Source: a phage. From it: 35,772 nucleotides of DNA. Positions within the stretch are counted from its first letter, which is position 1, and each line of letters opens with the position of its first letter. The stretch lies in assembly GCA_019566835.1 (NCBI GenBank), contig GCA_019566835.1_3045.2, one strand, 5' to 3'. Positions 31,796-33,749 of this stretch are shown in pieces. The translations under genes and the position numbers were made by a program. The notes under the pieces were generated by a model. The model made no database searches. It was not told where the DNA came from and saw only the letters and a program-made list of their open reading frames with translations.

Positions 31796-31960
31796 TTACT
31801 CTTCTTTTTCTTTAGATTCCTCTTTTTTCTTTTTAGGAATCTGCTCAGGACCTTTATTTACTACAGCGCCTGACGTTGTTCCAGTAGAGATATTTTCAGG
31901 ATTACCACCTGAATCTCCAGCGACCATATCTTCTTTAATAAATTCTTTATATGTTTTCAT
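31796..31960 (-). CDS. Small hypothetical protein (54 aa; 61.1 position)
   Basis: MKTYKEFIKEDMVAGDSGGNPENISTGTTSGAVVNKGPEQIPKKKKEESKEKEE; stop 2 nt before the gene 61 ATG. Confidence 0.45.
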   Translation of the reverse strand: MKTYKEFIKEDMVAGDSGGNPENISTGTTSGAVVNKGPEQIPKKKKEESKEKEE

Positions 31961-32005
31961 ATTAACCTCTATTCATAAAAGCATTAAAAATTTGGTCATC
32001 AATAG
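31958..32005. repeat. Direct repeat copy 1 (gene-junction cassette, about 48 bp)
   Basis: CATATTAACCTCTATTCATAAAAGCATTAAAAATTTGGTCATCAATAGA is about 92 percent identical to the copy at 32316-32363. Confidence 0.8.
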
Positions 32006-32318
32006 ATGGCGCAGTAATATTTTCTGCATCATTTAGTAAATCATTAATTTCATCAGATAGCATAACACATGTACCTTTATTTCCTGTAATTGTTACTGCA
32101 CAATTACGAACGTTTTCTTTATCAAATTTTAGGTTAATATTTTCGTAGTGAAAATCCTTTAATGCCGAATATATCTTTAAAATGAAATTGTCTTTTACTA
32201 CAATAAACCCAACCTCACTATTAAAACGCGGTTCATGGAAACTGTAATAAACCTTTTCATCTATAAAATCGTATGAAATTTTTTCCATTTTTAAATATGA
32301 AAATTCAGAACTATACAT
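31962..32318 (-). CDS. Hypothetical protein (118 aa; 61.x position)
   Basis: C-terminal 14 aa SIDDQIFNAFMNRG are shared with the upstream 210-aa gene. Confidence 0.6.
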   Translation of the reverse strand: MYSSEFSYLKMEKISYDFIDEKVYYSFHEPRFNSEVGFIVVKDNFILKIYSALKDFHYENINLKFDKENVRNCAVTITGNKGTCVMLSDEINDLLNDAENITAPSIDDQIFNAFMNRG

Positions 32319-32363
32319 ATTAACCTTTATTCATAAAAGCATTAAAAATTTGATCGTCAATAG
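32316..32363. repeat. Direct repeat copy 2 (gene-junction cassette)
   Basis: CATATTAACCTTTATTCATAAAAGCATTAAAAATTTGATCGTCAATAGA. Confidence 0.8.
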
Positions 32364-32952
32364 AAACTTTTACTTTAGGCTGTTCTTCAAACGGTAATTC
32401 ATATCCACATATTACAATTTTGTGATCGATACCAAAATACACAGAAGCAATATTATTAATATTATTTTCAGTGAAATCTAAATCAACATCAATATCTTTT
32501 TGACTAACGCTCAAAGGATAATTAATACGAATAATTCGATTATCTTTAACAAAGATTCCACCGACATACTCTGTGCTGCGTTTAAAGTTTACACGTTTCC
32601 TAAATGAAAAATATTCAGGTTCTTTATGGGCTCGACTCATAGGGCTTAAAGTGTATTCCGAATATGAAATATCAAATCCTACACCTTCAATATGAGCCAA
32701 AGTGTCATGATTAAACCAATTATAATCGTATGCCAAATCCATTAAATTGTAATATGTGAAAGGCACCGGATTAACATCATATGTTGTACCTTTAAAATCT
32801 GCCCAGGCAACGATTTCGTTATCTTTAACAATTACAAAAATTGTGCCAATAAGATATCCACGGTTATTTTCATCAGGCGTTATATTATAACATTGTGCAT
32901 CAGGAAATTTACCGTATTTAAACGGTGGATTTTTGTGCATATAATAAATCAT
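32320..32952 (-). CDS. Hypothetical protein (210 aa; 61.2-position ORF)
   Basis: ORF ending SIDDQIFNAFMNKG. Confidence 0.7.
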   Translation of the reverse strand: MIYYMHKNPPFKYGKFPDAQCYNITPDENNRGYLIGTIFVIVKDNEIVAWADFKGTTYDVNPVPFTYYNLMDLAYDYNWFNHDTLAHIEGVGFDISYSEYTLSPMSRAHKEPEYFSFRKRVNFKRSTEYVGGIFVKDNRIIRINYPLSVSQKDIDVDLDFTENNINNIASVYFGIDHKIVICGYELPFEEQPKVKVSIDDQIFNAFMNKG

Positions 32953-32953
32953 A

Positions 32954-33247
32954 TTATTCGCCTGTGATTTCGGTTACGATATTTTTGTTATTAAAGTTTT
33001 TATCGCAATACAGAACATAATTATACTGCATTACACCACCAGACTTAAGTTGTTTTTGCACTTCAGCTTTCATTTCAGGACGATCGCGCTCAACGATATT
33101 CATAATATCCGCTTCAATTTGAGTTTCAACTTCAGTCTGATCTGCAGTCATAGACCATTCACACAAATCTTTATCATATCCTGCCATAGCAGGCTGAGTA
33201 GCACAAGAAGCCAAAGTAAAAATTGTAGCAAAAATAAATTTTTTCAT
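32954..33247 (-). CDS. sp: Spackle periplasmic protein Sp
   Basis: 97-aa ORF with a cleavable signal peptide (MKKFIFATIFTLASCATQPAMA); T4 sp size and 61.3 position; SD GAGGAG. Confidence 0.7.
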   Translation of the reverse strand: MKKFIFATIFTLASCATQPAMAGYDKDLCEWSMTADQTEVETQIEADIMNIVERDRPEMKAEVQKQLKSGGVMQYNYVLYCDKNFNNKNIVTEITGE

Positions 33248-33275
33248 GATAATCTCCTCAGTAGTTTATGTTTAT

Positions 33276-33305
33276 ATAGTATCTCAATTTCCAACAAAAG
33301 TAAAC
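33276..33305 (-). promoter_or_regulatory. T4-type early promoter upstream of sp
   Basis: Minus strand reads GTTTAC, 18 nt, TACTAT. Confidence 0.6.
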
Positions 33306-33307
33306 AG

Positions 33308-33565
33308 CTATTTTAAAACTTCTGCGTAATCACATGTTACAAACTGTTTCTCTAGCTTAACGATTTTACGAAAATACCTTTTATACTGACGAATCTGCCT
33401 CTTCGTAGGACGTACAGCAAACTTAATAAATTCCACTCGACCAAATGGAGGACTTTCTTCTGCTGGAATATCTAACACCAATTCCCACGTATCCGCAATA
33501 AGTGCTTTGAATTGCGTATTTTTCCTGACGTTATACGGAGTAGGTTTAAATAAAACAATATGCAT
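33308..33565 (-). CDS. Hypothetical protein (85 aa; 61.4 position)
   Basis: Start taken at MHIVLFKP with SD GAGGAT, which removes the overlap with dmd. Confidence 0.6.
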   Translation of the reverse strand: MHIVLFKPTPYNVRKNTQFKALIADTWELVLDIPAEESPPFGRVEFIKFAVRPTKRQIRQYKRYFRKIVKLEKQFVTCDYAEVLK

Positions 33566-33566
33566 A

Positions 33567-33749
33567 TTATCCTCGGCAATCCACTTCGCACACTTTCTTG
33601 TCATCAATGAAAGCTTTAACTAATGCTTTATTAACTTCAGCATATTGAGTAGTAGCCCATTGAACGTCATCTTTCATCATTGTGATTTCTTTAGTAAACA
33701 TGCTTTCATTCTTAAACCACCCCATAAAAACTACTTTTACCAATTCCAT
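33567..33749 (-). CDS. dmd: Dmd antitoxin (inhibitor of RnlA/LsoA)
   Basis: 60-aa ORF with SD GAGGAG behind an early promoter, between the 61.x ORFs and gene 41; matches T4 Dmd in length and position. Confidence 0.7.
   Translation of the reverse strand: MELVKVVFMGWFKNESMFTKEITMMKDDVQWATTQYAEVNKALVKAFIDDKKVCEVDCRG

Follow-up and report, generated by a model that had tools for sequence, protein, structure and literature searches.

At positions 31796–33749 of a 35,772-nucleotide (nt) stretch of phage DNA (NCBI GenBank assembly GCA_019566835.1, contig GCA_019566835.1_3045.2), six small genes lie between the genes for primase 61 and helicase 41. We refer to the whole 35,772-nt stretch as 'the window', and coordinates are given on it unless stated otherwise. 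We consider, with a probability of roughly 85%, that this interval is the anti-toxin–antitoxin ('anti-TA') island of the T-even phages, a set of early, small inhibitor genes, and that the gene within it that specifies 118 amino acids (aa) encodes a single-module member of the AdfA (Anti-DarT factor A) family. The genes are as follows:

31796–31960, minus strand: 61.1, 54 aa, its C-terminus rich in lysine and glutamate (PHROG 1823; identity to T4 gp61.1)
31962–32318, minus strand: the 118-aa open reading frame (ORF), assigned as a single-module AdfA paralogue, or 'short AdfA' (BLASTP, Pfam, hhalign)
32320–32952, minus strand: the 210-aa ORF, adfA (61.2) (Pfam PF23813)
32954–33247, minus strand: sp (61.3), 97 aa, Spackle with a Sec signal peptide (Pfam PF25676, PDB 6X6O)
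33308–33565, minus strand: the 85-aa ORF, tifA (61.4) (identity to T4 gp61.4, Pfam DUF7279)
33567–33749, minus strand: dmd (61.5), 60 aa (Pfam PF17587, identity to T4 Dmd)

The flanking genes are primase 61 (30765–31793) and helicase 41 (33808–35235), recognized by matches to Pfam DnaG_N and DnaB_C. A first-pass annotation, made from the sequence alone, had placed six small ORFs between the two, and all six are there, on the minus strand and with the same boundaries. Four of the five internal gene junctions have the form TAA-T-ATG, the usual T4 layout for translational coupling. The interval is real and gene-dense, and a chance pattern of ORFs is rejected. In the mechanical ORF list the 85-aa ORF begins at an upstream TTG and spans 99 aa; read instead from the ATG 1 base past the end of dmd, it has the 85 aa of its T4 counterpart. 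Positions 31700–33850 share 99.8% identity with Escherichia phage teqdroes (MN895438 / NC_054932), a Tequatrovirus, and the same segment finds 665 matching phage records by megablast.

The 210-aa protein is the clearest case. It matches the Pfam family AdfA (PF23813, Anti-DarT factor A) with 461.7 bits against a cut-off of 27 (E=3.2e-139), and its residues 1–210 align to profile positions 1–211, that is, over the full length of the family. The proposal that this ORF is an anti-toxin candidate tied to DarT is borne out by this homology search. The gene occupies the slot between sp and 61.1, as it does in T4, in RB69 and in phage Ec_O157kw, the record of which names the orthologue 'anti-DarT factor A'. 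Its protein shares 83.5% identity with the AdfA of RB69, a member of a different genus (Mosigvirus), and 73.6% with that of T4, the latter figure dropping to 40% over residues 1–60. At the nucleotide level, adfA diverges from T4 more than any other gene in the interval (79% identity, versus 92–98% for its neighbours), and it looks like a mosaic or exchanged allele.

AdfA was found through escape mutants of RB69. The R164H substitution lets AdfA bind DarT1 in a two-hybrid assay, and residue 164 divides the RB69 protein into a form that binds and neutralizes DarT1 (His) and one that is inactive (Arg; PMC11257639/PMC11825919). The equivalent residue of window AdfA, residue 168, is neither: it is Asn (NNINNIASVYF), where T4 has His and RB69 has Arg. 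Window AdfA thus lacks the DarT1-enabling His, and its membership in the family is unaffected. Alleles P0007 and P0008, 96% identical to window AdfA, carry His at this position; AdfA of phage Sf21 has the same Asn. The Asn suggests that this allele either is adapted to some DarT variant different from that studied or is inactive against the latter. Identified as AdfA, the 210-aa protein is consequently not assured of activity against that particular DarT1. With Asn at the sole known specificity residue and an N-terminus that looks mosaic, adfA would be the fastest-evolving gene of the interval, and it is well suited to studies of inhibitor–toxin co-evolution.

The 118-aa protein aligns to AdfA residues 111–210 with 37% identity (BLASTP, E=6e-11). 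Against the Pfam AdfA profile it scores 31.9 bits (cut-off 27), covering only profile positions 113–211, and comparison with a profile of the C-terminal half of AdfA by hhalign returns a probability of 98.2% (E=3.8e-14). It falls in PHROG 4122, annotated as function unknown. On the basis of these alignments, we assign it to the AdfA family as a single-module member, paralogous to the C-terminal half of AdfA and distinct from the full-length protein. The first-pass annotation took the gene to be an extra, lineage-specific insertion. Extra it is, relative to T4, which lacks the gene and in which 61.1 abuts 61.2; narrowly lineage-specific it is not, being an AdfA paralogue found in about 300 phage records, T2 included.

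The predicted structures point the same way. An AlphaFold2 (AF2) model of the 118-aa protein, with a predicted local distance difference test (pLDDT) score of 83.6, has five beta-strands followed by a helix, a further strand and a pair of helices. This protein and both halves of AdfA are predicted to share one order of secondary-structure elements, and the models place a [FIV]VKDNxI motif at the beta3–beta4 hairpin of all three modules. In the model of AdfA itself, the beta5-alpha arrangement appears twice, together with a conserved C-terminal helix. AdfA would then be two fused modules, and the 118-aa protein one. A sequence search of solved structures with AdfA found nothing (best E=0.35).

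The region to which these two genes belong was proposed as a possible 'anti-TA island' by Srikant, Guegler and Laub (eLife 2022; PMC9391042). The window shares with the T4 island its position between 41 and 61, its gene order, its promoters, and proteins that are 100% (Dmd), 97.6% (TifA), 92.8% (Sp) and 96.3% (61.1) identical. It differs in the additional 118-aa gene between adfA and 61.1, and in the divergent allele of adfA described above. The counter-defence character ascribed to the interval in the first-pass annotation is therefore supported but already published for T4, in which dmd, tifA and adfA have been characterized.

The genes upstream of adfA bear this out to different degrees. 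Dmd, expected in the 60-aa slot, is indeed there: the protein matches Pfam PF17587 (E=1.6e-46), all 60 of its residues are those of T4 Dmd, and it matches PDB 5HY3_B, 'Antitoxin Dmd', with 100% identity (E=1.8e-37). As known from homologues, it would be an antitoxin-like direct inhibitor of the RNase toxins RnlA and LsoA. The 85-aa ORF, left unnamed in the first pass, we identify by its sequence as TifA, an RNA-binding inhibitor of ToxN. It matches Pfam DUF7279 (E=2.7e-20), and its residues 53–59, PTKRQIR, include the P53–T54 cap as well as basic K55, R56 and R59. Gene 61.4 was renamed tifA by Srikant et al. after it was shown to inhibit the type III toxin ToxN (PMC9391042), and Guegler et al. 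found that TifA binds both ToxN and RNA, and that P53, T54, K55, R56 and R59 are required (PMC10853763). The 97-aa ORF is Spackle (Pfam PF25676, E=1.2e-44; PDB 6X6O, E=2.9e-59). Its N-terminus is a Sec signal peptide, MKKFIFATIFTLASCATQPAMA, with AMA at its end and GYDKD next. Spackle, a periplasmic protein, inhibits the gp5 tail lysozyme of superinfecting phages, with which it forms a complex, and so acts in superinfection exclusion (PMC7677548). The description of Sp as a 97-aa signal-peptide protein stands; its inclusion among counter-defence factors does not, since it is directed at the gp5 lysozyme of an incoming phage and counters no host defence (PMC7677548).

We picture the island as an early-transcribed, translationally coupled block, the products of which would act as stoichiometric protein inhibitors. 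Dmd would bind and block the RnlA and LsoA RNases; TifA would bind ToxN together with RNA, trapping the toxin; and AdfA would bind the DNA ADP-ribosyltransferase DarT1. Spackle, once exported, would block the gp5 lysozyme of a superinfecting phage, and the short protein would be a toxin-binding inhibitor with a different target. In this family the variable module would set target specificity, and the invariant tail would serve a function common to all members. A likeness may be drawn with AdfB of phage ICP1 (PMC11481870) and with tandem arrays of anti-defence paralogues, such as anti-CRISPR or anti-restriction–modification islands, which also feature small early proteins, direct toxin binding and clustering with anti-defence genes. 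In AdfB-type binders and anti-defence arrays, too, allelic variants would match different toxin homologues.

Several points weigh against this reading. Neither Spackle nor 61.1 is a known counter-defence factor, and 'island' thus fits three to four of the six genes, and the promoter site upstream of sp, described below, scored under the threshold of our consensus scan. The genetics of DarT1 is also awkward. T4 ΔadfA has no DarTG1 phenotype, even when it lacks adfN as well, according to published work, and T2 without adfN cannot form plaques on DarTG1 cells, even though the short gene is retained (PMC11825919). We argue from the latter that the short form would not neutralize E. coli DarT1 at native expression, because the T2 ΔadfN phage that fails on DarTG1 cells keeps the short gene and has no full adfA. 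Together, the two results imply that, at native levels, neither T4 AdfA nor the T2 short paralogue gives protection from that DarT1. The authors suggest that natural AdfA alleles target other DarT homologues, and the short form may be aimed at other homologues likewise. Finally, the AdfA model is of moderate confidence (pLDDT 70.5), and comparison of profiles for the N- and C-terminal halves of AdfA gives a probability of 13%, with just the motif VKDNEI detected. Given so weak a sequence signal, the claim of an internal duplication rests mainly on predicted topology and on the short motif.

The short gene is widespread. A tblastn search with the 118-aa protein finds 338 phage records, 295 of them at 80% identity or more and 294 at 90% or more. 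Full-length AdfA occurs in 487 records, some 330 of which have no short gene. The junction of adfA with the short gene in tandem is present in 158 records, and a junction of sp with the short gene, without full adfA, in 141 (the T2 type). Three states of the adfA slot are thus common: adfA alone (T4), the short gene alone (T2, where it is annotated gp61.2), and both (the window). T2 'gp61.2' (AYD82632.1, 118 aa) is 97.5% identical to the 118-aa protein of the window, and 61.1 lies downstream in both phages. In T2, however, the gene follows sp directly, there is no full-length adfA, and a 13-nt remnant, AGAGGTTAGTATG, marks the junction. In the literature T2 counts as a phage that naturally has no adfA homologue, and this 'adfA-negative' label is true of the full-length form only. 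Since T2 and about 140 related records carry the half-size member, correlations between adfA genotype and sensitivity to DarTG should take it into account.

Beyond the close relatives, divergent single-module proteins (119–145 aa, ~20–46% identity) persist in other T-even genera. The Gaprivervirus EAWsc9 (PQ341120; positions 2062–2869 of the extracted locus, L004) has a tandem pair of short paralogues (145 and 122 aa) and no long form; both proteins end DDQIFNAFMKR(D/G). In that record, the 145-aa protein is annotated 'serine/threonine protein kinase' and the 122-aa protein 'DUF2528 domain-containing protein'; the former has no Pfam match, and the latter matches AdfA below the cut-off. When 1.84 billion representative proteins were searched exhaustively with a profile, only 10 clusters were returned, fragments included, all of them T-even-like. 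Among these are one full-length cluster and about four of single-module proteins (118–125 aa), and there was no sign among the 1.84 billion proteins of an origin from a bacterial antitoxin. Judged by this search, the AdfA family does not extend beyond T-even-like phages, and its short form shows the greatest diversity.

What unites the family is its C-terminus. All members end DDQIFNAFM(N/K)R(G/D), even where the bodies of the proteins are only ~20% identical. In the window, the DNA that encodes this tail, there DDQIFNAFMN(K/R)G, forms part of a 49-nt direct repeat (family D1 of our repeat search), one copy at the end of each gene:

32316–32364, no strand assigned: copy 1, made up of the adfA 3' end (SIDDQIFNAFMNKG) with its stop codon, plus the start codon (ATG) of the gene that follows
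31958–32006, no strand assigned: copy 2, made up of the 3' end of the short gene (SIDDQIFNAFMNRG) with its stop codon, plus the start codon (ATG) of 61.1

Identity between the copies is 94%, and their spacing is 358 nt, exactly one 118-aa cassette. Copy 2, at the junction of the 118-aa gene with 61.1, is identical to the adfA/61.1 junction of T4, and recombination between the copies would yield the T4 arrangement. We suppose that the cassette would be gained and lost in this way, by homologous recombination between the tail repeats. The AGAGGTTAGTATG remnant at the sp/short-gene junction of T2 resembles the end of adfA, and would fit loss of adfA from a tandem ancestor; it is weak evidence, its 13 nt including the ribosome-binding site. 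A three-copy array in the Yersinia phage phiD1 (HE956711; positions 1201–2737 of locus L011), composed of AdfA, two 118-aa copies and a 33-aa fragment, we set aside as a probable artefact of assembly, because N fills the junction between the copies and the short copies do not differ from each other; the 49-nt repeat is probably what caused it.

These observations invite a broader reading, which we offer tentatively and at less than even odds. AdfA-like proteins may be modular, fast-evolving inhibitors restricted to the T-even phages, each built from one or two variable beta5-alpha 'specificity' modules and an invariant C-terminal helix, DDQIFNAFMxRG. The 118-aa protein would then be a counter-defence factor in its own right, aimed at a toxin that is not E. 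coli DarT1, for instance a different DarT variant or some unrelated defence protein, and the repertoire would be widened or swapped via the 49-nt repeat. Our additions to the published picture of the island are modest: an AdfA paralogue that is widespread, that lies between tail repeats, and that is the sole AdfA-like gene of T2-type phages; an invariant C-terminal helix; and an Asn variant of AdfA. Of these, the helix provides a testable handle on the mechanism of AdfA.

The ends of the two genes might, alternatively, be conserved not as a protein motif or as a substrate for recombination but as a signal in DNA or RNA, namely a Shine–Dalgarno sequence and a MotA-type middle promoter for the genes downstream. 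Each copy of the repeat contains AATGCTTTT, 12 nt and then TAATAT, which resembles a T4 middle promoter (a MotA box and a −10 element), and each ends (A/G)AGGT TAA T ATG, a ribosome-binding site for the next gene. The record for phage Lutter places 27-nt 'promoter' features exactly on both equivalent copies. Transcripts from the MotA-like site would begin just within the next gene. Against this explanation, the amino acids of the tail are kept in RB69 and Gaprivervirus through synonymous codons (GCT/GCA/GCC, ATT/ATA, CAA/CAG, TTT/TTC and AGA/CGA) that disrupt the TGCTT box, which is conserved in neither, and the tail is invariant in proteins the bodies of which are ~20% identical. The synonymous changes make a purely DNA-level explanation insufficient and leave room for a role of the DNA in addition; the two roles are not mutually exclusive. 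As the whole account of the tail, we think the DNA signal unlikely.

Less likely again is that the 118-aa ORF is a decaying relic of a partial duplication of adfA, functionless and simply carried inside the operon. Such a relic might well match only the C-terminal half of AdfA, be missing from T4 and from the ~330 AdfA-carrying records mentioned above, and give T2 no resistance to DarTG1 when adfN is absent, all of which are the case. Against a relic, the ORF is intact and of full length in 337 of the 338 matching records, and the ratio of nonsynonymous to synonymous substitution rates (dN/dS) is 0.07–0.35, the 76%-identical variant in phage Sf21 included, which indicates purifying selection. 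The protein is confidently predicted to form a compact fold (pLDDT 83.6), the gene is the sole member of the family in the 141 T2-type records, and the divergent single-module relatives persist in other genera. Least probable of all is that the short protein works together with full-length AdfA, as its partner or modulator (e.g. in a hetero-oligomer that shifts AdfA specificity): in 158 records the genes lie side by side with translational coupling, and the common module and identical C-terminal helix could mediate association, but the short gene occurs without full-length AdfA in 141 records, T2 among them, and Gaprivervirus has two short forms and no long one.

Returning to the island as a set of early inhibitor genes, two promoters, one for each group of genes, complete the layout:

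33779–33807, minus strand: early sigma-70-type promoter for dmd–tifA, TTTACA-17-TATAGT, TG-extended (promoter scan, 10 of 12 matches, with the TG)
about 33276–33305, minus strand: promoter region upstream of sp, with GTTTAC (−35-like), a 17-nt spacer and TACTAT (−10-like) (read from the sequence)

The dmd promoter overlaps the end of gene 41, and the intergenic region that precedes dmd is identical to that of T4 at 62 of 63 nt. The region upstream of sp is identical to T4 throughout (60/60 nt), and contains in addition an overlapping, late-promoter-like TATATAAA; promoters are annotated at the equivalent site in the record for phage Lutter (MT682714). In T4, a mapped early promoter drives dmd and 61.4 (tifA), and a second promoter lies downstream of tifA (PMC9391042). 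Of the dedicated early promoters that had been claimed for dmd and sp, then, the former is upheld by the scan, by its match to T4 and by the published mapping, and the latter, read by eye and identical to T4, is less secure on account of its sub-threshold score. Intrinsic terminator prediction found none inside the 61–41 gene block. We infer two transcription units: dmd–tifA, and sp–adfA–118-aa gene–61.1, the second continuing into gene 61. Scanning 31500–34000 against Rfam matched no RNA family, and none of the six proteins matched NCBIfam.

The last gene of the block, 61.1, belongs to PHROG 1823 (E=7e-34), annotated as function unknown, and has no match in Pfam or NCBIfam. The teqdroes record calls the 54-aa gp61.1 a 'major capsid domain-containing protein' (positions 3813–3977 of locus L009), for which the family searches give no support. 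In RB69, 61.1 is longer, at 92 aa, and PHROG 2086, a profile of 156 positions, matches just its conserved C-terminal core.

The cargo of the 41–61 interval differs by genus. RB69 has imm and imm.1 between sp and 61.4 (positions 4012–4690 of locus L008) and, in the gap from 41 to dmd, two additional ORFs (040c and 041c; 5153–5899 of the same locus). A 105-aa ORF of the 040c type is present also in Gaprivervirus EAWsc9 (locus L004, 836–1153), and has no Pfam match. On the other side of the primase gene (window 29978–30589 and 30568–30768), no dam gene lies between genes 56 and 61, unlike in T4. A 66-aa ORF on the plus strand (window 30568–30768), similar to RB69ORF029w, overlaps the primase stop codon by 4 nt; in related records it is a predicted membrane protein.

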